From an uncultured Bacillales bacterium (lineage in GTDB: Bacteria > Bacillota_I > Bacilli_A > RFN20 > CAG-288): a stretch of DNA of 64,000 bases. The notes below the pieces were generated by a model. That model was not told the DNA's origin. It made no database searches and saw nothing but the letters and a program-made list of their open reading frames with translations. Positions within the stretch are counted from its first letter, which is position 1. Each line of letters opens with the position of its first letter. Shown here piece by piece: positions 30,595-49,379 of this stretch. A program made the position numbers and the translations under genes. The stretch is from the NCBI GenBank assembly GCA_937874465.1, contig CALNAX010000069.1:8669-72668 (forward strand), given 5' to 3'.

Positions 30595-33378
30595 ATGAGA
30601 CGTTTGTGGGCATTCCTGACGATGCTTATATCGCTTGTTATCGGTTTGGGTTTCATCGCCCAGCCGATTGTCGACGAGACTAATGTTTCCGGTGAGTTCT
30701 CGAACGGTATGTCCGTGGTCTACCAGATCAGCCGGGAAGCCAATGGGGATTCCCTTGATTCCATCGATGTCGCCGGGGCCTTGAACGACAGGCTCGATAC
30801 CGCTGGCGTTAGGGGTGCCAAGGTCGAGATCATGTCTGCCGATTCCGGATACGATGGCAATTCCGATAGCGACTTCACTTCCGGCGAGACCGAGATGGTA
30901 AGGATATCCTTCTCGGACAAGTCCGATCTCGAGCTGTCCGATCTGAGAAGGGTCTTGGAGGGGAATGGCGAATTGGCCATCACCACCGCCGACAACTATG
31001 TGTTGGAAGGTGACGATTTCTTCGCCGATACGCCTGCGACTTTGGAATATGACGACAGCGGCAATCCCTTCGTGGCCATCCACCCGACCGATACCGATGC
31101 CTGGACTGAGGTCTCCGACCATCTCTCCACCCTGACCGACGACACCGAGAAGACCCGTGTGCTGATTTGGCGCGGATACGACAAAGACAACGACACCTAT
31201 GACAAGGTATATAACGACGATTACGATGACATCGACCAGCTGGTGAAGGACAAGGTGGTGGTGGTATTGGATACCTCCTCGGCCTATGATTCGACCGAGA
31301 ACTACCTGAAGGTTACCTCCGACACTTCCTGGGATGTCTTCACTTCCCGGGTGCCTTGGTCCATCGATGGCGAATCGACCGATTTCACCATCTCGTCCGC
31401 TAGGGCCCTGGTCAACTCCCTGAATGCCTCCGACTATGGCTTCGACATAACCTTCCAGTACACCGCCACCACTTCGGCCACCTTGGGCACCGATGCCATT
31501 TACTGGGCCATCGGCGGCTTCTTGGGCGCTTACCTTCTGGCTTTCGTGGCCTTGATAGTCCTCTATGGCTTGGCCGGGTTGATCTCCTTCGTGACCAATG
31601 CCTCGGGCCTCATGCTTTCGATCTACCTTTCTTCCTTCGTCGGCTTTGAGTTCTCAATCGCCTATTTGTTGGGTTTGGGCCTGGTGGCGATTCTGGGCAT
31701 ATTGGTTACAGTCAACTACTTCGAAAGGGTCAAGAACGAACTGCGGAAGGGGCGTTCGATAGACAAGGCGAACAAGGAAGGTTACCGTAAGTCCTTCAAG
31801 CTTACCCTCGATCTGACCGCCAGCGCCTTCTTCGTCTCCCTGTTTTCCTTCCTCGTGGCCCGGGGCATGACCAAGGTCGGCTTTGGCGTCATCGTCGTCG
31901 GCTCGATATTCGTCTTCCTGGTGGTAAACTACCTGACCAAGTGGTTGATGTACTGGCTCACCAGCTATGCCAAGACCGGAAGTCCCAAGTTGGTGTTTGG
32001 CTTCAGGCTTGACAGGGAGCGTCCCCTCTACGATGCCCAGGCCGAGCTTTCGAAAGAGGTCTTGCCCGACAGGGCCTTGGCCCATGACAAGGCTATTAAG
32101 TCCAAGTCCCGCAATTGGGGAATCTTGGCCGCGGCCGTGAGCCTGATCTTTTTGGGCGGGATTACCTATTACGGTATTACCGGTGGGGTCGATTCCTTCT
32201 TCAACGCCAGCGGCGATTACGCCTCCAACTACAGGGTCGACATGATGACCACGGCGACCGGTTACCTTTCCGCCGATGGGAAGGACGTCGATTTCAATTC
32301 CGCCGCCGACATTGTCTCCTACCTGGAAGAGAAGGTCTTGGACCAGGCTGCCCAAGAATATACCGACATCAACGGGAATTCGAATCCCCTGTCCTTGGCT
32401 GAATATGAGGAAAAGGTCGGACTCGACTTCTCCGACAGTTCCTTCTACATCACGGAGGTGGAGACCAATACCGCCGAGACGGACGATCCGACCTTCGATG
32501 TCATCTACGTCTCCTTCTCGATGCCCGTCCTTTCTGATGACAGCGTCAACGAACAGAGGATCGAGGCCTTCGACCTGATCGGCGATGCCATGAACGACTT
32601 GATCACCGAGAACGGCTACAGTGCCGCCTTGGAGAACATCAGCGTGGCCGATTCGGCCAAGCCCGATGAGCTCCAGGATCGCTACACGCCCTATGTGAGG
32701 GTGGGCGAGGCCGTTTCCGGGAACATCTCCCATGACAACGAATGGCTGTCGATAGTGCTGACGCTTTTGGTTGTCTTCGCCGCCGTTTATGCCGGCATCA
32801 GGTATGGCCTTTCGGCTGGCTTGGTCTCCTTCTTCTCCGGTTTCGTGGCGGTGTTGGCTGGCTTGGCCTTCCTGGTCATCTCCCGCGTTCCCTTCACCTC
32901 CATTACCGGTTATGGGTTGATAGGCGCCGGTCTGTTTGCCACCGTCCTTCCTCTGCTTTCTTTCGCCCGCAATCGGGAACTGCTAAAGGATGGCAGGGTC
33001 ATACGGACGGCTTCCAAGGAGTTGCGTCTCGAGTACTTCCTCAAGGCTACCGGCATCTCGCTGCCCATATTCGCGGTGGCCGGGGGTTGCTTGATCCTGG
33101 TCAGCATCCTTGGTTCTTCCCTGTTTGGGGGAAGTGTGTACGGCTTGGGGTTGACCCTGTTCGTCGGAGGGTTGGTGGGTTGGTCGTTCACGGTGTTCGG
33201 CTTGCCTTACATGTATGTCTCCCTGAGGTCGGCGATGAAGTTCCAGTGGTACAAGGACAAGGTTTCTAAGTATCGGGCCAAGCATCCCAAGAGACCGGGC
33301 AAGAGGCAAATCACGGCCGATCCCAACGAGGCCCGGGAGACGGTCGTGCCGGGCATAAACGATTATCGCAATTTCTAG
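30595..33378 (+). CDS. secDF: fused protein-export membrane protein SecDF
   Basis: 927 aa. An N-terminal TM is followed by a large acidic extracytoplasmic domain, a 5-TM block, a second extracytoplasmic domain and a second 5-TM block (SecD then SecF topology). GGGAGGA RBS. Confidence 0.85.
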   Translation: MRRLWAFLTMLISLVIGLGFIAQPIVDETNVSGEFSNGMSVVYQISREANGDSLDSIDVAGALNDRLDTAGVRGAKVEIMSADSGYDGNSDSDFTSGETEMVRISFSDKSDLELSDLRRVLEGNGELAITTADNYVLEGDDFFADTPATLEYDDSGNPFVAIHPTDTDAWTEVSDHLSTLTDDTEKTRVLIWRGYDKDNDTYDKVYNDDYDDIDQLVKDKVVVVLDTSSAYDSTENYLKVTSDTSWDVFTSRVPWSIDGESTDFTISSARALVNSLNASDYGFDITFQYTATTSATLGTDAIYWAIGGFLGAYLLAFVALIVLYGLAGLISFVTNASGLMLSIYLSSFVGFEFSIAYLLGLGLVAILGILVTVNYFERVKNELRKGRSIDKANKEGYRKSFKLTLDLTASAFFVSLFSFLVARGMTKVGFGVIVVGSIFVFLVVNYLTKWLMYWLTSYAKTGSPKLVFGFRLDRERPLYDAQAELSKEVLPDRALAHDKAIKSKSRNWGILAAAVSLIFLGGITYYGITGGVDSFFNASGDYASNYRVDMMTTATGYLSADGKDVDFNSAADIVSYLEEKVLDQAAQEYTDINGNSNPLSLAEYEEKVGLDFSDSSFYITEVETNTAETDDPTFDVIYVSFSMPVLSDDSVNEQRIEAFDLIGDAMNDLITENGYSAALENISVADSAKPDELQDRYTPYVRVGEAVSGNISHDNEWLSIVLTLLVVFAAVYAGIRYGLSAGLVSFFSGFVAVLAGLAFLVISRVPFTSITGYGLIGAGLFATVLPLLSFARNRELLKDGRVIRTASKELRLEYFLKATGISLPIFAVAGGCLILVSILGSSLFGGSVYGLGLTLFVGGLVGWSFTVFGLPYMYVSLRSAMKFQWYKDKVSKYRAKHPKRPGKRQITADPNEARETVVPGINDYRNF

Positions 33379-35180: not shown

Positions 35181-36392
35181 ATGGATCTATACCTGGGTTT
35201 GGAAAAGGATGAGCCTTTGCCTCCCGCCCTTGGGGACGGGTCCATTTTCACTTACGTGGAGAAGGAGGGGAAGGTCGCCATAAGCCCCGACCATCCCTTC
35301 AACGCCATCGACGCCGTGATCCTGGCCCGGGTCTCATACATGTCCTTCGACGGCTTGGTTCTCCCGACTTTCGGCAGTTTCGTGCGGATAAAGGAGGTGG
35401 CGCCTAAATACCTGGCCCTCTGCCAGGACGACGAGATGCGCTTCGTGATGGGCGAGGACGTCAGGCTTATGGGGCTTTTGAAGGACAGTCCCCGGTTCCA
35501 AAACCTCGAGCTGGTGGGCTTTAGGACCTCGTTCTCAAACGAGAACACGGAGCAATTCGCGGCCCTGACCATCCTTTTGCCGGATAGGACCGCCTTCGTA
35601 AGCTTTAGGGGCACGGATGGGTCCCTGAATGGCTGGCGGGAGGATTTCGATCTGGGCTTCAGGGGGGTGTTGCCTTCCGACAGGGATGCCTCCGCCTACC
35701 TCAGGGAAGCCATAAGGGCCTTCTCGCCCTATGTAATGGTAAGGGTCGGGGGCCATTCCAAGGGCGGGAATCTCGCCGCCTATGCCACCGCGACGCTTTC
35801 GCCCGGCGACAAGGAAAGGATCAAGGACATCTGGCTTTTCGATTCGCCCGGCTTCCGGCGGGACGTCTTCCTGTCTTTGCCCTACCAGGACCTGAAGGAC
35901 CGAATCCACTTCTACGCCCCCAACCAATCGATCGTGGGGATGATCCTTTACAACATCGCCCCGGCTCGGTGCGTGGCCTCCAGGAGGACCATGTTCCTCC
36001 AGCACGACGTCTACCAGTGGGGCGTCGACGGGATCGCCTTCCAGCCATCCCTTTTCGAGCCGGTGTCCTATGGGATCAAGCACATGACCATGGACATATT
36101 CGAGCAAATGGGCAATGCCCAATTGGAGCAGAGCATTGACGGGTTGTTCAACATAGTCAGGGATGAAAGGGGCGACCATTTCGGCGACCTGACCAAGAAG
36201 GTCTGGGGCAATGCCATCCAAAGCTTGCTCCTGTTCAGGAAGATCTCCCCGGAGAACCGCAAGCCCCTGATGGAAGCCTTCCTTAAGGTATACGAGAGCA
36301 TAAGGTACATCGTAAGGTCCGACAAGTCCCGCAAGGAATTGGCCAAGAAGGCCTTGAAGGAAAAAGCCCAAGAGGAACGCAAAGACAAGTAA
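35181..36392 (+). CDS. Mbeg1-like/DUF2974 alpha/beta-hydrolase (lipase-like)
   Basis: AFVSFRGTDGSLNGWREDFDL and the nucleophile elbow VGGHSKGGNLAAYA. Confidence 0.7.
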   Translation: MDLYLGLEKDEPLPPALGDGSIFTYVEKEGKVAISPDHPFNAIDAVILARVSYMSFDGLVLPTFGSFVRIKEVAPKYLALCQDDEMRFVMGEDVRLMGLLKDSPRFQNLELVGFRTSFSNENTEQFAALTILLPDRTAFVSFRGTDGSLNGWREDFDLGFRGVLPSDRDASAYLREAIRAFSPYVMVRVGGHSKGGNLAAYATATLSPGDKERIKDIWLFDSPGFRRDVFLSLPYQDLKDRIHFYAPNQSIVGMILYNIAPARCVASRRTMFLQHDVYQWGVDGIAFQPSLFEPVSYGIKHMTMDIFEQMGNAQLEQSIDGLFNIVRDERGDHFGDLTKKVWGNAIQSLLLFRKISPENRKPLMEAFLKVYESIRYIVRSDKSRKELAKKALKEKAQEERKDK

Positions 36393-36456: not shown

Positions 36457-37374
36457 ATGGAGTTCGACGCGAAGAAGGAGGCCTTGAAAGTCCGCCGCCG
36501 AAGGCGCCTCGCCCGCTTTTTCGGCGCAGGGCTATTGGTGGTTATGACCGCCCTGACGGTCACGTATTTCTTCCTCCCCACCGCCCGGGTCTCCAAGGAT
36601 TCCCTTAGCCTTGTGGGGAACCTGAACGGTTTGCGTAGCCAGGCTTATGACAAGGAGGACGTCCTTGAGGCCATGGGTGCCCAAGAGGGTTCCTATCTCG
36701 CCTTCCAAAGCCAGGCCGAACTGGCGCAAAACCTAACGGACGCGTGGTTCGTAAACCCCAGTTACGGTTTGACCCTGGAGGTGGACCCCTTCAACATGAC
36801 CCTGTCCTATAAAGACGTCTTTCCCTTGGCCCGGATAGAGGAGGACGGAAGCCAGGTGGTCTACCTTTCGGACGGGGAGGCCCTCTCTGGGGAAAGCGAA
36901 CGGGCCCTAAAGGCCCGCGAGGCCTACCCGTCATATGTCGATGTCGCCTCCTTGGTCAGTCAATCCCTGCCCCTTTTCGTGCCGGAAAGCAGCGACCGAC
37001 TATCCTCGGGACTGGTGGGGTTGGCCTTGCTGGACCCGGAGGCCTTGGCCTCGACCTTCCTTTTGGCCGTGAGGGATGACGGGAGCCAGTATTTCCTCTA
37101 CTACAACCTTCCCGAAAGCGACGGCGACTACCTTCCCCTGCGGATCAGGCTTCTGCACGAGGATCTGGAAAACCTCAAGCAGGCCAGCATGGTAGCGGTG
37201 GTCGGGGAGAAGGTGGGCCAAGCCAGCCAGGGATCGTCGGGACATGTGCCGGTGACCGATTCCGCCCTTCCCTCTTCGGTCTCGGTTAGTTCATACTATC
37301 AAGTCGTGTTCAAGCGCAACGATACGCCCAGCGGCCGGTACGTGGTCAACTGGGACGACGGACAGGGGAACTGA
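36457..37374 (+). CDS. single-pass membrane protein in the FtsQ/DivIB position
   Basis: Basic N-terminus (RRRRRLARFF) followed by one TM (GAGLLVVMTALTVTYFFL). It lies immediately upstream of ftsA with a 2-nt gap. No sequence motif confirms a POTRA domain. Confidence 0.4.
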   Translation: MEFDAKKEALKVRRRRRLARFFGAGLLVVMTALTVTYFFLPTARVSKDSLSLVGNLNGLRSQAYDKEDVLEAMGAQEGSYLAFQSQAELAQNLTDAWFVNPSYGLTLEVDPFNMTLSYKDVFPLARIEEDGSQVVYLSDGEALSGESERALKAREAYPSYVDVASLVSQSLPLFVPESSDRLSSGLVGLALLDPEALASTFLLAVRDDGSQYFLYYNLPESDGDYLPLRIRLLHEDLENLKQASMVAVVGEKVGQASQGSSGHVPVTDSALPSSVSVSSYYQVVFKRNDTPSGRYVVNWDDGQGN

Positions 37375-37376
37375 AA

Positions 37377-38552
37377 ATGGCAGTGGGACAGTTTGACGCG
37401 GTAGCGGCGCTATCGCCATCGGGCGTTAGGTTGGTCTGTGGCTACGTCAAGGATGGCCAGACCTATGTTCTGGATTCCCTCTTCGCCCCCGGCAAAGTCT
37501 TCTCCGGGGCGAAGATAATCGACACCGAGGGGGTGGCACGGCTTTTGCGGATCGTGGTCGATGACGCCAGCAAGGATTTGAAGACCCCCATAAGGGCCCT
37601 TGCGGCCATCGTGCCGCCTTTCGGGTTGGATACACTCAAGGAAGAGAGCCGGACCTCCACGGTCGGGGAATCGGTGACCGAGGTGGACGGGCTAAACTGC
37701 ATGGGCATAATCGCCAAGAAGCTTTCCGAATCCCAGGCCAAGCGGCTTTTGGGCATTTTGCCCTACGAGTACTCCATCGAGGCCAACCAGGCCATGGACC
37801 ATTTCCCCAAGGGCTTCCCGGCTACCGAACTGGGGGTCAAGGCCCAGGTGGCGTTGGCCGACGAGGGCGTTCTTGATTCGGTCAGGGAGGTGTTCGCCAA
37901 GGCCGGGGTGGGCCTGGCGCTGGTTTTGCCCTCCACCTTGGCCGTGGCCCGCTATCTTCGCAATGCCCAGGGCCTTCCCCCCTCCTATCTCCTCTTGGAC
38001 CTTGGCAGCCAGGTCTCTTCCTGCTCCTTCGTCCAGGGCGGTCAGGTGATCGAGACCGATTTGTCCTTCTTCGGTGGCAACAACCTCACCCAGGCCATCG
38101 CCAAGACCTTCCACCTGGACCGGGAGGAGGCCGAGAGGTACAAGAAGACCTTCGGCATCTCCGCTGATCCCTCCTTCGGGTACAAGACGCCCTCCGGCTT
38201 CACCCAAGGCGAGCTTTCCCGCGTCATCAAGTCCTCCCTGACGCCGCTGATGGAATTGGTTGGTAGAATTGAGACGGCGGTTTCCATAGAGCAGCAGAAG
38301 GGCCTGGTAACCACCGGCGGGGCCAGCAACCTCAACGGACTGTCCAAATGGCTCTCCGACAACCTGGGGAAGGACGTGTATGCCCTGGCGGTGCCCAATC
38401 CGGGCGCCCGCTACCGCGGCGACGTGGACCTTTTGGGCGGGTTGCTGGAGATGGAAGACATGCGGTGGATGCTGCTTAGGAGGGAGACCCATGCGGGAAT
38501 CCTCAGGAGACGGAGCGAAGGCGACAAGGAAGACGGAAGCGGCAAGGAGTGA
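37377..38552 (+). CDS. ftsA: cell-division protein FtsA (actin-like ATPase)
   Basis: Position upstream of ftsZ and actin-fold phosphate/adenosine motifs (LLLDLGSQVSS, VTTGGASNLNGLSKWL); 391 aa. Confidence 0.8.
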   Translation: MAVGQFDAVAALSPSGVRLVCGYVKDGQTYVLDSLFAPGKVFSGAKIIDTEGVARLLRIVVDDASKDLKTPIRALAAIVPPFGLDTLKEESRTSTVGESVTEVDGLNCMGIIAKKLSESQAKRLLGILPYEYSIEANQAMDHFPKGFPATELGVKAQVALADEGVLDSVREVFAKAGVGLALVLPSTLAVARYLRNAQGLPPSYLLLDLGSQVSSCSFVQGGQVIETDLSFFGGNNLTQAIAKTFHLDREEAERYKKTFGISADPSFGYKTPSGFTQGELSRVIKSSLTPLMELVGRIETAVSIEQQKGLVTTGGASNLNGLSKWLSDNLGKDVYALAVPNPGARYRGDVDLLGGLLEMEDMRWMLLRRETHAGILRRRSEGDKEDGSGKE

Positions 38553-38558
38553 GCAACA

Positions 38559-40655
38559 ATGGCTAACGAAACGGAAGCGGGACAGGTAAGCCCCAAGGAC
38601 CGTCAGGTCCCACAGATCAAGTTCGACAACGAGGCGGTCACCTCGACCAAGGCCAAGATTTTGGTTATCGGCGTGGGCGGGGCCGGCTGCAATGCCGTGA
38701 ACCGGATGATCGAGGACGGTGTCAGCGACGTCACCTTCTGCACCGCCAATACCGATGCCCAGGCCCTGTCCCTGTCCAAGGCCCCCATAAGGATCCTCTT
38801 GGGGAAGGAACTGACCCACGGATTGGGAGCCGGAGGTCAGCCCGAAGTCGGCAAGGAGGCGGCCGAGAAGACCCTGCCGGTCCTAAAGAAGCTCATGGCC
38901 GATCAGGACATGGTGTTCGTGGCGGCCGGCATGGGCGGGGGGACCGGCACCGGCGGGGCGCCGGTGATCGCCAAGGCCGCCCATGACGGCGGGGCGTTGA
39001 CCGTGGCCGTGGTGACCAAGCCGTTCAACTTCGAGGGGAAGCTAAGGATGACCCATGCGGCCCAGGGCATAAGCGAGCTGAGCCACTGCGTGGATTCCTT
39101 CATCGTGGTGTCTAACGACAAGCTGATGCTGACTCATGGGGACATGAGTTCCATGGAGGCCTTTGCGGAATCGGACCGTACCCTGTCTAGGACCGTCAGC
39201 ACCATTTCCGACCTGATCAACAAGCCCGGCTACATAAACCTGGACTTCGCCGACGTCAAGTCGACCCTTAAAGGCTCCGGCCTTTCGGTCATCGGCTTTG
39301 GCCAGGCCAGCGGGGAGAACAAGATCCAGGAGGCGGTCCGAAAGGCCATCTCCTCGCCCCTCCTGGAGGCTTCGGTCAAAGGGGCCGGAAAGCTTTTGGT
39401 CAACATCACCAATTCCAAGGAAGTCAGCATGAAGGATGTCGGCAAGACCGTCGATTTCATAAACGAGACCTCCGGCAAGACCGACAACGTGATCTTCGGG
39501 GCCATGTATGACCCAAGTCTTAAGGACACCATCAGGGTGGCCGTAATCGCCACGGCCTTCAACCTCGGCCCGACCGCCTTGGAGAAGGAAGGCGACGCGA
39601 ATGGTTCCAAGGCCCTTGGGGGAAACCCGATTGCCAACGGTGAGGGCAAGGAGGACCAAGTGCTTCCCGGATTCCTCCAAGCCCTTTTGGGCAGTGGGAA
39701 GATCCCCCCGGTGGGAAAGGCGAACGAAGATGCAGCCAAGAAGGCCAAGCAGGACCAGGACCAACTAAGGCAGGCCAACGACAAAAACGCGGCCCTCGAA
39801 AGGGAGCTGGCTTCCCAAAAGGCCCAAGTGGACGGACTGAACAGGGAACTGGCCCTCCTCAAGGAATCCAATGCCAAGCTGGGGCGCGAAAACGGGGAGC
39901 TGGAGAAGGCCAAGAACGACTTGGAATCCCAGGTCCAGTCCCTTCCCGAGCTTAGGCAGAGCCTTTCCGACGAGGACAGCGAGAAGGAGAGCCTCCAGAC
40001 CAAGATAAGCGCCTACGAGAACAAGATCTCGGACCTGAACCTGGAACTGGAGTCGGCCCGAAACGATTTGGCGGCGGCCCAAGGCCATGGCTCGGACCTG
40101 GCAAGCCTGTTGGGAACGGCCAACGCCAAGGTCGATAGCCTCAATTCCCGTCTGGAAAGCCTGGCCAAGGAGAACGAAGGCCTGAAGGCCCAAACGAATC
40201 AGTCCTCCGGCCTTTTAGGCCAGCTCAGGCAGGCCGAGGCCCAAAAGGATTCCCTGTTAGGGGAACTGACCAAGATCAAGGCCGAACTGGCCCAAAGCGA
40301 GACACAGAAGGCCGAGCTGTCCAAGCAGGTGAAGGAAAACGCGGATGAGATAGCGGCCTTGAGGGCCCAGGCGGAGAAGCTTAACGGGGCCGTGGATACC
40401 TACCAGAAGCGTGGGGACAGCTACCAGGCCCGCCTCAGGGTCTCCCTTAAGACCAACCAGGAACTTGCCGAAAGGCTTTCCGCGCAGGTCCAAAGGGCCG
40501 AAAGCTACCAGGCACGCTTGCGCCTAAGCCTTGCCAAGGTCCAAGAGATTGAGGGCGAAAGGGACGGGAAGGAAGAAGGAGACGACGAGCCGAACGACGA
40601 GTCCGACGACTTGGCCAAGAGCCTCTTGGCCAAGTTGGGTCAAGGCGGCAAGTGA
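38559..40655 (+). CDS. ftsZ: cell-division GTPase FtsZ with a long C-terminal coiled-coil extension
   Basis: GVGGAGCNAVNRM, tubulin signature GMGGGTGTGGAPVIA and NLDFADV. The core ends near residue 340. A CTC-like VLPGFLQALL lies near residue 370. About 320 further residues are heptad-rich. Confidence 0.95.
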   Translation: MANETEAGQVSPKDRQVPQIKFDNEAVTSTKAKILVIGVGGAGCNAVNRMIEDGVSDVTFCTANTDAQALSLSKAPIRILLGKELTHGLGAGGQPEVGKEAAEKTLPVLKKLMADQDMVFVAAGMGGGTGTGGAPVIAKAAHDGGALTVAVVTKPFNFEGKLRMTHAAQGISELSHCVDSFIVVSNDKLMLTHGDMSSMEAFAESDRTLSRTVSTISDLINKPGYINLDFADVKSTLKGSGLSVIGFGQASGENKIQEAVRKAISSPLLEASVKGAGKLLVNITNSKEVSMKDVGKTVDFINETSGKTDNVIFGAMYDPSLKDTIRVAVIATAFNLGPTALEKEGDANGSKALGGNPIANGEGKEDQVLPGFLQALLGSGKIPPVGKANEDAAKKAKQDQDQLRQANDKNAALERELASQKAQVDGLNRELALLKESNAKLGRENGELEKAKNDLESQVQSLPELRQSLSDEDSEKESLQTKISAYENKISDLNLELESARNDLAAAQGHGSDLASLLGTANAKVDSLNSRLESLAKENEGLKAQTNQSSGLLGQLRQAEAQKDSLLGELTKIKAELAQSETQKAELSKQVKENADEIAALRAQAEKLNGAVDTYQKRGDSYQARLRVSLKTNQELAERLSAQVQRAESYQARLRLSLAKVQEIEGERDGKEEGDDEPNDESDDLAKSLLAKLGQGGK

Positions 40656-45687: not shown

Positions 45688-45732
45688 TTGTATCAACGTG
45701 GTCCGTAGTGGTATATTGTGGTCGTCAGTGGG
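45688..45732 (+). promoter_or_regulatory. mraZ promoter with four phased MraZ-box-like direct repeats
   Basis: TTGTAT (45688), an 18-nt spacer, then TATATT (45712). GTGGT at 45698, 45708 and 45718 and GTGGG at 45728, spaced exactly 10 nt apart. Confidence 0.65.
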
Positions 45733-45750
45733 AATTGGGAGGCGCTAGGA

Positions 45751-46191
45751 ATGTTCCTTGGATCGTCTGAGCACACGCTCGATGACAAGCTACGTCTGGT
45801 CCTTCCCAAAAAGGACCGGGAGGTTTTCGGTTCCAAGGCCGTGGTGGCCTGGGACTACGATGGCAACTTGGCCCTGTTCACGCTGACAGGCTTCCAATCC
45901 CGGGCCAGGCAGATCGAGTCCCTTTCGGATTTCGACCAGTCGGCCCGGGCCCTGAAGCGGACGTTCTTCGGCAAGTCGCTGGAGCTCGACATCGATAGCC
46001 ACGGCCGGGTGAACCTACCCAAATACCTTTTGGACAAGGCCGGCATCGTCAAGGAAGTCACCTTGGTGGGCGTGGTCGACAGGATCGAGCTTTGGGACAG
46101 CGCCAAGTACGAGGCCGTTTCCAAGGCCGAGGAGAAGGATTACCCATGTCTGGCACAGAAAATGCTAACTGGAACCCCGGATGCGAAGTGA
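45751..46191 (+). CDS. mraZ: transcriptional regulator MraZ
   Basis: Two SpoVT/AbrB-like repeats: LDDKLRLVLPKK and DSHGRVNLPKYL. ATG 45751 follows GGGAGG. Confidence 0.93.
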   Translation: MFLGSSEHTLDDKLRLVLPKKDREVFGSKAVVAWDYDGNLALFTLTGFQSRARQIESLSDFDQSARALKRTFFGKSLELDIDSHGRVNLPKYLLDKAGIVKEVTLVGVVDRIELWDSAKYEAVSKAEEKDYPCLAQKMLTGTPDAK

Positions 46192-47138
46192 CGGAGTACA
46201 ACGTCCATATCCCGGTGATGCTTACCGAGGTTCTCTCCTATCTTCGTAAGGACGTTCCCGATTACGTGGTGGTCGACATGACCATCGGGAGGGCCGGGCA
46301 TGCGGCAAACATCCTCAGCACCTTGGGCGCCAACTGTTTCCTCTACGGTTTCGACAGGGACATCGATGCCATCGACTATTCCCAGAAGAAACTCGGCAAG
46401 TACGGTTCCAACTTCAAGCTGTTCAAGGACCGCTTCTCCGATGCCATACGTCTCCTAAGGTCCAATGGCGTCAAGGGAGCCGACTTCATCCTCTTCGACA
46501 TCGGGGTCTCCTCCCCCCAGTTCGACGATCCGGAGAGGGGCTTCTCCTATCGCTTCGATGCGCCTTTGGACATGCGGATGGATCAGGGGCAGAAACTCAC
46601 GGCCCGGATGGTCGTGAACGACTACTCCCCGGCCGATCTGGAGAGGATCCTCAGGGACTATGGGGGCGAGACGTTTGCCCGGCCTATCGCCGAGGCGATA
46701 GTCAAGGCCCGCAAGGAGAAGCCCATCGCGACCACCTTCGAATTGGTGGACGTGATCAAGGGCGCCCTTCCCGAACGGATCCTCCACCATAAGGGCCATC
46801 CCGCCAAGAAGGCGTTCATGGCGATAAGGTACGAGGTCAACGACGAGAGGAAGGAACTGGAAAGGGCCCTCAACGACTCGATAAGGTTCCTTAACCTCGG
46901 CGGCAGGGTATGCGTCATCACCTTCAATTCCGACGAAGACGCCTTGGTCAAGAAGACCTTCCAGTCCTATTGCCCCCAAAGCGTCATCTCCCGGTTCTTG
47001 CCGCCTCTGCCTGGCGAGGGCCAACAGGAGTACCGGATCCTTACCCACAAACCGGTAAAGCCGTCCAAGGCAGAAGAAGAAGTCAATCCCCGGGCCGAAT
47101 CAGCATTGATGCGGGTCCTGGAAAGGAGTGGGGTATGA
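46146..47138 (+). CDS. rsmH: 16S rRNA (cytosine1402-N4)-methyltransferase RsmH
   Basis: HIPVMLTEVL, DMTIGRAGHA and DIGVSSPQFDDPERGFSY. ATG 46146 overlaps mraZ by 46 nt. An in-frame GTG at 46188 (a GTGA overlap with the mraZ stop) is an equally plausible start. Confidence 0.92.
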   Translation: MSGTENANWNPGCEVTEYNVHIPVMLTEVLSYLRKDVPDYVVVDMTIGRAGHAANILSTLGANCFLYGFDRDIDAIDYSQKKLGKYGSNFKLFKDRFSDAIRLLRSNGVKGADFILFDIGVSSPQFDDPERGFSYRFDAPLDMRMDQGQKLTARMVVNDYSPADLERILRDYGGETFARPIAEAIVKARKEKPIATTFELVDVIKGALPERILHHKGHPAKKAFMAIRYEVNDERKELERALNDSIRFLNLGGRVCVITFNSDEDALVKKTFQSYCPQSVISRFLPPLPGEGQQEYRILTHKPVKPSKAEEEVNPRAESALMRVLERSGV

Positions 47139-47359
47139 GCAAGTACGTAATCCTGAAGAAGAACGATCGCGAGAAGGAGCCCAAGAAGGTCCGCAATCGG
47201 ATCCTGACGTTGGTGGGTGCCTTGTTCGTGGTGGCCAGCGTGGCCTGCACGGCGGCTTTCGTTCCCTTGGCCGTCAGCGAGGCCAACCAAGCCCAAGAAG
47301 CAGAAGCCTATACCCAGCCGGAAAACAGCGATGGGAAAACCATCGTCGTCTTCAGGTGA
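47135..47359 (+). CDS. small bitopic membrane protein in the FtsL position
   Basis: 74 aa: MSKYVILKKNDREKEPKKVRNRILTLVGALFVVASVACTAAFVPLAV... ATGA overlap with the rsmH stop; GGAAAGGAG RBS. Confidence 0.45.
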   Translation: MSKYVILKKNDREKEPKKVRNRILTLVGALFVVASVACTAAFVPLAVSEANQAQEAEAYTQPENSDGKTIVVFR

Positions 47360-47417
47360 CTTCCCTTAACAAATAGCCAATAATTACCGACACGGTTTCA
47401 GAATATTCCTTTACGTT

Positions 47418-47437
47418 GCCCCGAAAGGGGCTTTTTT
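47418..47437 (+). terminator. intrinsic terminator ending the mraZ operon
   Basis: GCCCC-gaaa-GGGGC followed by TTTTTT. Confidence 0.8.
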
Positions 47438-47445
47438 CGTGGTCC

Positions 47446-47518
47446 TTTTCCGACTACTGCCAAAGCTTTGCTAGTGGGAGCGCTTACTGCTTTTGCCACC
47501 CGCTGCCTAGTCGGAAAA
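47446..47518. repeat. perfect 11-bp inverted repeat with a 51-nt spacer
   Basis: TTTTCCGACTA (47446-47456) and TAGTCGGAAAA (47508-47518), in the 5' region of the lipoprotein gene. Confidence 0.6.
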
Positions 47519-47582
47519 TACCCATGACGATAAGTCCCCCTTAGGCGCTCGGATGGGCCTCCCCCTAAAACGGAGGTTTTGT

Positions 47583-49379
47583 ATGCAAAGGTCTTTCACC
47601 TTGTCGGGATTGGCCGCACTAGCAGTTTTGTTGGTTTCGTGCGGGTCGGGGTCGGAATCCCCCTTTTCTTCATCACCGGCAACCAGTTCGTCGGCGGGCT
47701 CGAGTTCCGAATCCGGTTCGGCCTTCACAAGCTCAGATTCCCTTGGAATGGACCCCTCTTCGTCGGGTACGTCCTCTTCCAGTGCCTCCCAAACGGACAT
47801 GGGGGCTTCGAGCATCAGCCAGGCCTTGGCCGGGGAAGAGGGCCAGAGCTGGACCATCGAGGGAACCGTGACCGAAATCCTCTATAGCAGCAGGGGCAGC
47901 ATCGCCCAAATATGGGTCTTCGATGGGACTGGGGGTATAGACCTATACAACGAGTCCGGCCTCCCTGATGTCGCAATCGGCAACGGGATCGTGGTTCTAG
48001 GGACCTATTCGATCTACAAGAACACCCCCGAACTGGAGGATGCAACCATCCTTTCTAACGATGGGATGACGTCTTTGACTCTGGATGATTCATGGATTGT
48101 CGATTCGACCGTTACCGACATCAAGGAACTGGCCGATAGCCCCGTCGGACAGATATTCCGGGTCCAGGCCATCATAGGCAAAGATGACAACTACGGGACT
48201 TATTACCTGAATGAGGTCGTCGGGGACGAATCCCTTCAGGCGTATTCCCAGAGCAGCTATAGTGAGTACGCCTTCCTGGACCAATATGTCGGAGAGGATG
48301 TCACCATCGTCTTCCAGGTCGGTACGCCCAAGGTTTCGAATGGCAACGAGATCACCCGCGTGATGCCTTTGTACGTGGAAAGCGTCATTACAAAGGAGGA
48401 CGAACAGGCGGAAGTGGATGCGTCCGTGAAGGAGGGGCTTAGGAAGGCCAACCTGGTCTTCTTCGGGCCGGGGAAGATCACCCTTCCGGGTACAAGCCAG
48501 TCATTGGAGGGGGCGACTTTCACCTATGGGGTATCGGACGAGGCGGCGGCCGTTGTTACCGAAAGGGAAGATGGGGATTACCAGGTCGACGTCTTGGGTA
48601 CCGCAGGCTTCACCATCAAGGCCACGTTGACCTATGGGAGCTTCGCCGCCACGGACCAGGCCCAGGTGGAGATAAGGGAAAAGCCGACCTTTTCGGCCAA
48701 CGATACCATCGAAAACCTCAGGCAAGAGGCCACTACGGGAGAAACGGTGACCATCGTCGGGGTGGTGGTCGGGGGCGTATTTGGCAACGGCAACGACGGA
48801 TACCGCTACAACGACTACTACGTGGCGGATTCTTCCGGTACCATCGAGGTTTACCTGACCGCGGACCAAGCTGGGAAGTTTGCCTTGGAAAAAGGGGAAC
48901 AGGTGGCTCTAACAGGGACCTGGGACATCTACGAAGGCGCGGCCAACACCAAGTCGGTGGAAGGGGCGACCGTGATATGGCATGATTCGGCTACTAACGA
49001 CCTGCCTTTGACCATCCCAAGCAGGGACTTTTCCTGGATGATCGACTACCAAGTCGATAGCCAGGACAACCGAAGCGGAGACGTTTTCTACATGGAGACA
49101 ATAGTGAAGAAGGTCGAGACGACCTACGGGACAGCCTATTATGCTTTCAGCCCGGATGCCACTTCCTTCGACACCTCGGACAAGACGGCGGCCAAGAACA
49201 TCTACAAGGCGAGCGGAGCCGACCTTTCGTATCTTGACCCCTGGCTGGACGGGAAGGTGACGGTCCTTATGGGCATCCACGACAAGAAGGCCGGCTACGA
49301 CGACAACGGAGAGGCCGAAAACGCCACGGGCGGCTATTATCGCTACGACATCATCCCGGGCTATTTCGCGCTGGACTGA
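47583..49379 (+). CDS. surface lipoprotein with a Ser-rich linker and two OB-fold-like modules
   Basis: MQRSFTLSGLAALAVLLVSCGSGS carries a lipobox (LLVSC). It is followed by about 60 aa of Ser-rich low-complexity sequence. Two T.xG.V....(F/V).D..G.I..Y segments follow. ATG 47583 follows GGAGG. Confidence 0.7.
   Translation: MQRSFTLSGLAALAVLLVSCGSGSESPFSSSPATSSSAGSSSESGSAFTSSDSLGMDPSSSGTSSSSASQTDMGASSISQALAGEEGQSWTIEGTVTEILYSSRGSIAQIWVFDGTGGIDLYNESGLPDVAIGNGIVVLGTYSIYKNTPELEDATILSNDGMTSLTLDDSWIVDSTVTDIKELADSPVGQIFRVQAIIGKDDNYGTYYLNEVVGDESLQAYSQSSYSEYAFLDQYVGEDVTIVFQVGTPKVSNGNEITRVMPLYVESVITKEDEQAEVDASVKEGLRKANLVFFGPGKITLPGTSQSLEGATFTYGVSDEAAAVVTEREDGDYQVDVLGTAGFTIKATLTYGSFAATDQAQVEIREKPTFSANDTIENLRQEATTGETVTIVGVVVGGVFGNGNDGYRYNDYYVADSSGTIEVYLTADQAGKFALEKGEQVALTGTWDIYEGAANTKSVEGATVIWHDSATNDLPLTIPSRDFSWMIDYQVDSQDNRSGDVFYMETIVKKVETTYGTAYYAFSPDATSFDTSDKTAAKNIYKASGADLSYLDPWLDGKVTVLMGIHDKKAGYDDNGEAENATGGYYRYDIIPGYFALD

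Follow-up and report, generated by a model that had tools for sequence, protein, structure and literature searches.

Why should a bacterial FtsZ protein continue for some 320 residues past the peptide near which FtsZ normally ends? This question is raised by a 64,000-nt stretch of DNA (contig CALNAX010000069.1 of GenBank assembly GCA_937874465.1, positions 8,669 to 72,668), here called the window, which stems from an uncultured Bacillales bacterium of the GTDB lineage RFN20; CAG-288. A preliminary description of this DNA, made from the sequence alone, had proposed that its ftsZ gene is a fusion of FtsZ with a Z-ring-associated coiled-coil module. Our analysis indicates that the additional segment is a predicted coiled-coil rod shared by an entire clade, that it most likely grew in place, and that it might turn each FtsZ subunit into its own cross-linker. 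The gene and the parts of its product are arranged as follows (coordinates refer to the window; pLDDT, predicted local distance difference test).

38559..40655, + strand: ftsZ, an open frame for 698 aa; single TIGR00065 match in the genome; identical protein in four independent assemblies
38628..39566, + strand: FtsZ GTPase core, residues 24-336, with the G-box GGGTGTG at 126-132 and the T7 loop N227/D229/D232
39567..39650, + strand: short C-terminal linker, residues 337-364, predicted to be disordered (pLDDT <50 at 342-367)
39651..39692, + strand: conserved C-terminal peptide (CTC) EDQVLPGFLQALLG, residues 365-378, recognized by alignment; predicted helix at 371-377
39720..40562, + strand: predicted coiled-coil rod, residues 388-668, with three long predicted helices, a heptad z of ~7-10 and Foldseek matches
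40413..40448, + strand: degenerate first copy of an island, GDSYQARLRVSL, residues 619-630; direct repeat D4, 84 nt upstream of the second copy
40488..40541, + strand: conserved island VQRAESYQARLRLSLAKV, residues 644-661
40563..40610, + strand: acidic spacer, residues 669-684, of which 669-679 are predicted to be disordered (pLDDT <50) and those from 681 onward belong to the terminal helix
40611..40637, + strand: terminal amphipathic motif LAKSLLAKL, residues 685-693, consensus [LF][AS]xx[LI][LMF]xx[LI]

The ftsZ frame starts 6 nt past the stop codon of the upstream gene, a divergent ftsA, is preceded by an AGGAG ribosome-binding site 9 nt upstream, and ends with TGA. The FtsZ equivalog model TIGR00065 matched residues 24-336 with 372.9 bits (curated cut-off, 295.2 bits); when the genome as a whole was searched (1.37 Mb on 75 contigs, 86.5% complete), the same gene scored 375.5 bits and was the sole FtsZ match. 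Pfam places a Tubulin domain at residues 33-190 and an FtsZ_C domain at 241-334. The GTP-binding signature G126-G132 and the T7-loop residues N227, D229 and D232 (NxDxxD) do not vary when the protein is aligned to 29 other FtsZs. AlphaFold2 modeled the core with a pLDDT >90 and placed its last strand at IRVAVIAT (325-332), within the segment IRVAVIATAF (325-334) that marks the core end. Compared by Foldseek with the FtsZs of B. subtilis, S. mutans and M. tuberculosis, the modeled core gave template-modeling (TM) scores of 0.94-0.97 and root-mean-square deviations (rmsd) of 1.1-1.4 A; the values for B. subtilis FtsZ (2vxy) were a TM score of 0.96, an rmsd of 1.3 A and 52% identity. The equivalog score, the GTP and T7 signatures, the two-domain fold, the conserved C-terminal peptide and the ftsA-ftsZ neighborhood are the marks by which an FtsZ is recognized, and all were found here. 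Judged by sequence and model, the 698-aa protein is the genuine and sole FtsZ of this organism, with a predicted capacity to polymerize and a predicted role in the Z-ring. We rejected an identity as an FtsZl1/Tubulin_2 protein, as PF13809 gave no match at E <= 0.1, the FtsZ equivalog model was passed, and the gene adjoins ftsA, with no other ftsZ in the genome.

Downstream of the short linker, the conserved peptide has VLPGFLQALL at its center (368-377, with VLPGFL at 368-373). Almost no variation was seen at its residues P370 and F372 in 30 aligned FtsZs (this one included), and it aligns with the near-terminal ILPNFF of the sister genera. The 320 residues that follow were predicted by AlphaFold2, run on the whole protein with an alignment, to form helices at 388-460, 462-507 and 514-668 (pLDDT 64-88; ~280 helical residues), and the same helices were obtained when the tail was modeled in isolation. 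Heptad periodicity was assessed with scans of our own making rather than with standard coiled-coil predictors: residues 396-660 gave a mean of 0.72, compared to 0.455 +/- 0.037 in shuffles, with a register that stays constant through runs of ~64, 105, 79 and 38 residues, and a second scan of the post-motif tail yielded z = 10.4. The best Foldseek matches of the tail model were coiled coils of the Smc arm and of chemoreceptors. Long helices with sustained hydrophobic periodicity at the heptad a and d positions, the hallmark of the coiled-coil class, are thus predicted for this segment; on sequence and single-chain model grounds the tail is of coiled-coil type rather than a disordered linker. 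Close to its end, the rod contains a direct repeat of (D/E)SYQAR (nt 40416-40433 and 40500-40517) whose spacing of 84 nt equals 28 aa, or four heptads. The rod is followed by the acidic spacer, a terminal helix predicted at 681-694, and an acidic C-terminus with DDLAKSLLAKLGQGGK as its last residues.

Much of this layout had been anticipated by the preliminary description. The open frame translates to the 698 aa that it gave, the end of the core near residue 340 was located at 325-334, and the motif that it compared to a CTC at about residues 365-378 lies exactly there. The same holds for its ~320 charged, heptad-like residues, for which helix predictions and a heptad signal above that of shuffles were found, and for the acidic tail with its ending DDLAKSLLAKLGQGGK. 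The SYQARLR(V/L)SL repeat that it noted is real, with only the position given for the first copy (nt 40427) being a few bases off. Its question as to whether the tail is a coiled coil or a plain disordered linker is answered in favor of the former by helix prediction and heptad scans.

The long tail characterizes an entire clade and arose once according to the tree of the FtsZ cores. Within the genus, long FtsZ open frames (700, 1023, 1025 and 1192 aa) occur in all four species; outside it, not one of 61 further FtsZ genes detected in the family is long (frames of 329-558 aa; six other genera). Six further metagenomic lineages (P0003, P0004 and P0174-P0177) have the long form, and the design is thus present in ten species-level lineages with proteins of 698-1275 aa. 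Among these, P0174 (1275 aa) and P0175-P0177 (851-870 aa) were added to the tailed plan by a length-restricted search for FtsZ-core proteins of at least 652 aa, from which the best 120 of the 3157 proteins passing E <= 1e-20 were considered; P0173 and P0179 resemble variants of the FtsZs of the congeners G002 and G003. The common plan consists of the core, a short linker, the peptide (V/I/A)(L/M)Px(F/Y)(L/I) at residues 352-385, and a tail in which 150-760 heptad-rich residues lead into a stretch that is acidic or of low complexity and then into the terminal motif. The heptad periodicity lies far above that of shuffles in most of the ten lineages. In each of the ten long homologues, the terminal motif comes after an acidic stretch and is situated within the last 20 residues; in the genome studied here, ftsZ is the only ORF (open reading frame) with such a motif near its C-terminus. 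A maximum-likelihood tree of the cores unites nine of the long forms in one clade (100/99 support). The tenth, from the low-GC G003 (GC, guanine plus cytosine), sits on a long branch and attaches beside this clade, so that one gain suffices for all ten (80/71 support; 78% of the bootstrap trees). The gene order recJ, Mbeg1-like gene, 300-aa membrane protein, ftsA, ftsZ and pheS is shared by the clade and, for the six metagenomic lineages, recurs on both of the contigs examined, those of P0174 and P0175, with a 400-aa protein in the FtsA position. The preliminary description had raised the prospect that relatives might routinely have FtsZs of this length with an already described function; the first half of this expectation is borne out within the genus, whereas for the second no described function was found. 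As a separate observation, the GC content around the ftsZ locus spans an unusually wide range within one genus, from 35% (G003; loci L014, L015 and L017 compared) to 60-64% (G000-G002).

How, then, did the tail arise? A missed stop codon, a frameshift or a chimeric assembly that fused ftsZ to an unrelated ORF has practically no probability left as an explanation and is effectively refuted. The identical 698-aa protein is present on at least 15 contigs, and the four loci that we examined belong to four independent assemblies of different samples (one from NCBI, two from Logan, one from ENA). These differ from the window by 1-26 nt across 18 kb and by 0-1 nt within ftsZ (nt 1857, G/A), and all encode the identical protein. 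Nine other lineages show the same architecture, and the GC content is even along the gene. The fusion put forward in the preliminary description is also very improbable, whichever pre-existing trans-acting Z-ring protein (of the ZapB, EzrA, DivIVA or SepF-partner type) is considered as the donor. It can draw on weak matches of the tail to many coiled-coil families, e.g., SMC and Rad50, but every one of these stayed below its cut-off, as did a Seryl_tRNA_N match that appeared in the tail when the whole protein was searched, and ZapB (PF06005), EzrA (PF06160), DivIVA (PF05103) and SepF (PF04472) are not among the tail's family matches. Among 1.84 billion representative proteins the tail retrieved only itself, followed by generic coiled-coil proteins at no more than 50.6 bits; a 63-residue segment around the RAESYQ island retrieved only the protein itself from 5.8 billion proteins; and searches of genome contigs gave only chance coiled-coil matches (Elusimicrobia, Mycoplasma enhydrae, Flavobacterium). 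Matches of 16-23 bits between tail residues ~146-237 and frames of ~423-468 aa in five genomes were dismissed as chance; they overlap the Seryl_tRNA_N stretch and may represent the arms of seryl-tRNA synthetases. An 18-bit match to a 572-aa frame in G002 was likewise dismissed. The preliminary description had suggested looking for the tail as a separate gene in relatives; a search of 40 related genomes revealed none. In a short-FtsZ relative, pheS follows directly after ftsZ with no gene between them, and EzrA and a DivIVA-domain protein remain separate genes in the genome studied here. Since the tail has no homologue outside the clade, a fusion to a known Z-ring module is not supported. The rod most likely grew in place, through duplications of whole heptads, from the short variable tip (CTV, C-terminal variable region) that follows the conserved peptide, because the sister genera carry acidic, low-complexity tails of 5-100 aa after the peptide and the long tails hold whole-heptad duplications. 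The 84-nt duplication in the window's ftsZ amounts to four heptads, the G001 tail contains 2.7 tandem copies of a 231-nt unit (11 heptads), and length variants of 974, 947 and 919 aa occur inside one 90%-identity cluster. If so, a small variable FtsZ tip can evolve into a large folded domain.

The surroundings of ftsZ contain the remaining division genes of the locus:

36457..37374, + strand: 305-aa single-pass membrane protein in the FtsQ/DivIB position; no family match; 24-33% identity in congeners
37377..38552, + strand: divergent ftsA, 391 aa, with the C-terminal amphipathic segment MRWMLLRR...GILRRR; TIGR01174 67.7 bits (below cut-off), PF14450 40.9 bits
40679..41692, + strand: pheS, 24 nt downstream of ftsZ with no gene intervening; end of the division genes

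Within the clade, the proteins encoded at the ftsA position (37377-38552 in the window; L014, L015, L017, L034 and L035) share only ~22% identity among congeners, and some of them lack a Pfam or NCBIfam FtsA signal, whereas the Mbeg1-like neighbor retains 37-43% identity across the clade. We rejected the notion that the divergence of FtsA is special to the genus, as no FtsA of the order reaches the model cut-off. The gene for the Mbeg1-like protein (window 35181-36392; PF11187, 194.9 bits) separates recJ from the division genes in every clade member examined. Elsewhere in the window, a remnant dcw cluster (45718-49379) comprises mraZ, rsmH, a 74-aa ORF and, at the usual place of a penicillin-binding protein (PBP), a protein of 598-608 aa without a family match. 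A 927-aa SecDF-like protein (30595-33378) has the mycoplasma-type SecDF as its best model, at 142.8 bits versus a cut-off of 500 bits. Taken with the size of the genome, the wall genes that were not found and the fact that the nearest named FtsZ matches belong to Bacillales, this match suggests a Mollicutes-like or RF39-like member of the Bacillota.

The preliminary description had envisaged a lineage with a reduced divisome, and the gene content of the genome agrees with this. FtsW/RodA, PBP transpeptidase, MurA, SepF and ZapA were not found in the 86.5%-complete genome, nor did MinD yield anything above cut-off, and it is probable that the wall-synthesis genes, SepF, ZapA and MinD are indeed absent. 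A DivIVA-domain protein is encoded elsewhere in the genome, as is MreB (G000:C59:26124-27080, outside the window; 334-aa frame, 284.9 bits). With MreB present and FtsW/RodA, PBP transpeptidase and MurA not found, the cell resembles Spiroplasma, which likewise combines an actin-like cytoskeleton with an apparently wall-less cell. Across the 40 relatives, EzrA is universal and the distribution of FtsW and SepF is patchy. The further suggestion that the tail matters because the divisome is reduced fared less well, since the tail does not simply track the reduction: four sister genera of the family that lack FtsW/RodA and SepF have a normal FtsZ. The tail is for this reason insufficiently explained as a simple compensation for a lost SepF or cell wall.

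With respect to function, we assign a probability of about 0.5 to the reading that the rod self-associates between subunits, so that FtsZ serves as its own cross-linker, while the tip helix docks a partner. Rods would pair or bundle with the rods of other FtsZ subunits, and each FtsZ would thereby contain a built-in cross-linker that takes the role of ZapA, ZapD or SepF, or that of a positively charged CTV. Such bundling would condense the protofilaments into a stable Z-ring in a cell without septal wall synthesis as a driver of division, and the rod tip would offer a partner, e.g., FtsA, EzrA or the DivIVA-domain protein, a second peptide on which to dock. The CTV is known to tune lateral FtsZ interactions (PMC4835091), and Zap proteins cross-link or bundle filaments through the C-terminal peptide (PMC4835091; bioRxiv 10.1101/301622). 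The rods of homologues extend for up to ~440 residues with one proline, no glycine and no break at mid-rod; since these homologues lack a Pro/Gly turn at that place, a conserved intramolecular hairpin appears unlikely from their sequences. Several observations weigh against cross-linking by the rod. The best Foldseek matches of the tail model (chemoreceptor, Smc arm) are antiparallel helical-hairpin folds, which is consistent with a chain that doubles back, probably turning at residues 508-513 where the helix is broken; as a monomeric hairpin it would not cross-link. Compared to the core, the tail has an evolutionary rate more than 10 times higher, and its length is not constant within species, which would also fit weak constraint. 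The genome retains EzrA, a helical-repeat protein known to bind FtsZ, as a separate gene (170.7 bits) and hence in trans, the arrangement that the preliminary description held to be usual for coiled-coil functions. The normal FtsZ of the four sister genera without FtsW/RodA and SepF makes the need for a cross-linker in cis less than evident. Finally, a rigid alpha-helical domain in the linker position is reported to harm B. subtilis FtsZ (published work cited in bioRxiv 10.1101/301622); that domain sat in the linker, whereas the rod considered here sits after the conserved peptide.

Three other views of the tail deserve consideration. It is unlikely, in our judgment, that the tail is a largely neutral expansion, i.e., a low-complexity, charged tip that grew by slippage and is tolerated without a specific function under relaxed selection in a wall-less, host-associated lineage. 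Variation within species lends this idea some credit, because the core shows 0-2 changes in ~360 residues (<=0.6%) and the tail 1-9% residue changes plus in-frame indels, with a hypervariable rod surface. The tails of congeners can barely be aligned to one another, the FtsA-position genes and FtsZ cores of the clade are also on long branches, and the sister genera have variable acidic tails. Yet frames of 300-900 codons have stayed open in ten lineages of high and low GC content, the heptad periodicity exceeds that of shuffles in most of them, and duplications come in whole heptads. Moreover, only 9 of the 76 variable sites fall on heptad a/d positions, compared to an expectation of 27.9% (one-sided binomial p = 6e-4, with registers derived from the same sequences and hydrophobic residues that are perhaps less mutable), and the sequences in this way indicate that the heptad core positions are under structural constraint. 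Beyond the hypervariable rod, the terminal helix is kept in 10/10 tails, and the QRAESYQxRLxLA island is found in 7/10, each with p <= 0.002 against shuffled tails. These same two short islands, and not the rod surface, are the best-conserved parts of the tail, which lends tentative credence to a spacer or tether: a long arm that does not cross-link (~40-110 nm if extended), or a hairpin, would bring the RAESYQxRLxLA island and the terminal helix within reach of a docking partner or of the membrane, which might serve to position the ring or to link it to the nucleoid or MreB. The terminal motif, unique in the genome and predicted to be an amphipathic helix, would suit such an arm, as would the fit of the single-chain tail model to antiparallel hairpin folds, the presence of MreB and a Min system that was not detected in the genome. 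The flank of the terminal helix is strongly acidic, however, unlike that of cationic membrane-targeting helices, and this argues against direct membrane binding; the roughly three-fold variation of rod length between species, and its variation within species, are awkward for a ruler; the docking partner is hypothetical; and a tether is compatible with cross-linking as well. By analogy to intermediate-filament and myosin-rod assemblies one may, with considerable doubt, also picture a hybrid cytoskeletal polymer in which GTP-driven heads polymerize and the rods pack side by side, with the RAESYQxRLxLA island and the terminal helix as registration and docking sites. If true, the resulting thick and stable cable or ring would scaffold itself and serve both division and shape in a wall-less cell, and it would be a kind of bacterial cytoskeleton so far undescribed.

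Regardless of which reading applies, the clade bears on two long-standing questions: what holds FtsZ protofilaments together, and whether the Z-ring can drive division without wall synthesis. These have usually been approached via trans-acting cross-linkers or engineered tails. Here, a natural experiment is provided by a covalent rod of ~40-110 nm (if extended) on each FtsZ subunit, placed after an intact partner-binding peptide in a cell apparently without peptidoglycan synthesis, SepF, ZapA and Min. Ready controls exist in close relatives with an ordinary FtsZ and in natural variants of rod length, and the protein should be easily expressed, so that the effect of the tail on bundling, on the formation of membrane rings and on partner binding can be assessed against a tailless form.

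When set beside the canonical FtsZs of B. subtilis and E. coli, whose plan consists of the core, a disordered C-terminal linker (CTL), the CTC and the CTV (PMC4835091), the protein is alike in the sequence, fold and catalytic motifs of its core, in its short disordered linker, in its (V/I)LPxF(L/I) peptide and in its ftsA-ftsZ pair; in the canonical proteins, the tip beyond the peptide is known to tune lateral filament contacts (PMC4835091). The two differ in the extent and nature of this tip, which comprises 4-10 residues in the canonical proteins (KQAD, NRNKRG) and 320 residues here (up to ~900 in relatives), where it is a predicted heptad-repeat helix that ends in a second conserved helix. 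The role proposed for the rod is that of ZapA, ZapD, SepF and EzrA, dimeric or oligomeric helical proteins that hold protofilaments at the FtsZ C-terminus; those are separate peptide-binding proteins with no sequence relationship to the tail, whereas the rod is built covalently into each FtsZ subunit. Long FtsZs with a true core and more than 650 aa also exist in Alphaproteobacteria and Acidobacteria (e.g., Pararhodospirillum photometricum, 690 aa; Granulicella aggregans, 760 aa). What lengthens them is a linker rich in Pro and Gly (14-25% P+G) and devoid of a heptad signal, placed in front of a peptide that lies 4-13 residues from the C-terminus, in contrast to the short linker and the post-peptide extension of the clade studied here. 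The other long FtsZs among the 120 considered owe their size mainly to a Pro/Gly-rich linker or an N-terminal extension of 600-690 aa, or are apparent fusions or miscalls. The proteins with N-terminal extensions, P0251-P0286 from other metagenomes, reach 1040-1190 aa and end in GLPAFVRKLFKK (P0265: VPSFVKRLFGRK); theirs is a different route to a giant FtsZ.

In eukaryotes, septins are GTP-binding filament subunits whose C-terminal coiled coils pair with those of neighboring filaments. This is a functional analogy only, as septins have an unrelated fold and lineage and their extensions are much shorter. No description of an FtsZ in which a coiled-coil tail follows the conserved peptide was found in the open-access literature; within that coverage, the large folded domain predicted downstream of this peptide sets this protein apart from all characterized FtsZs.

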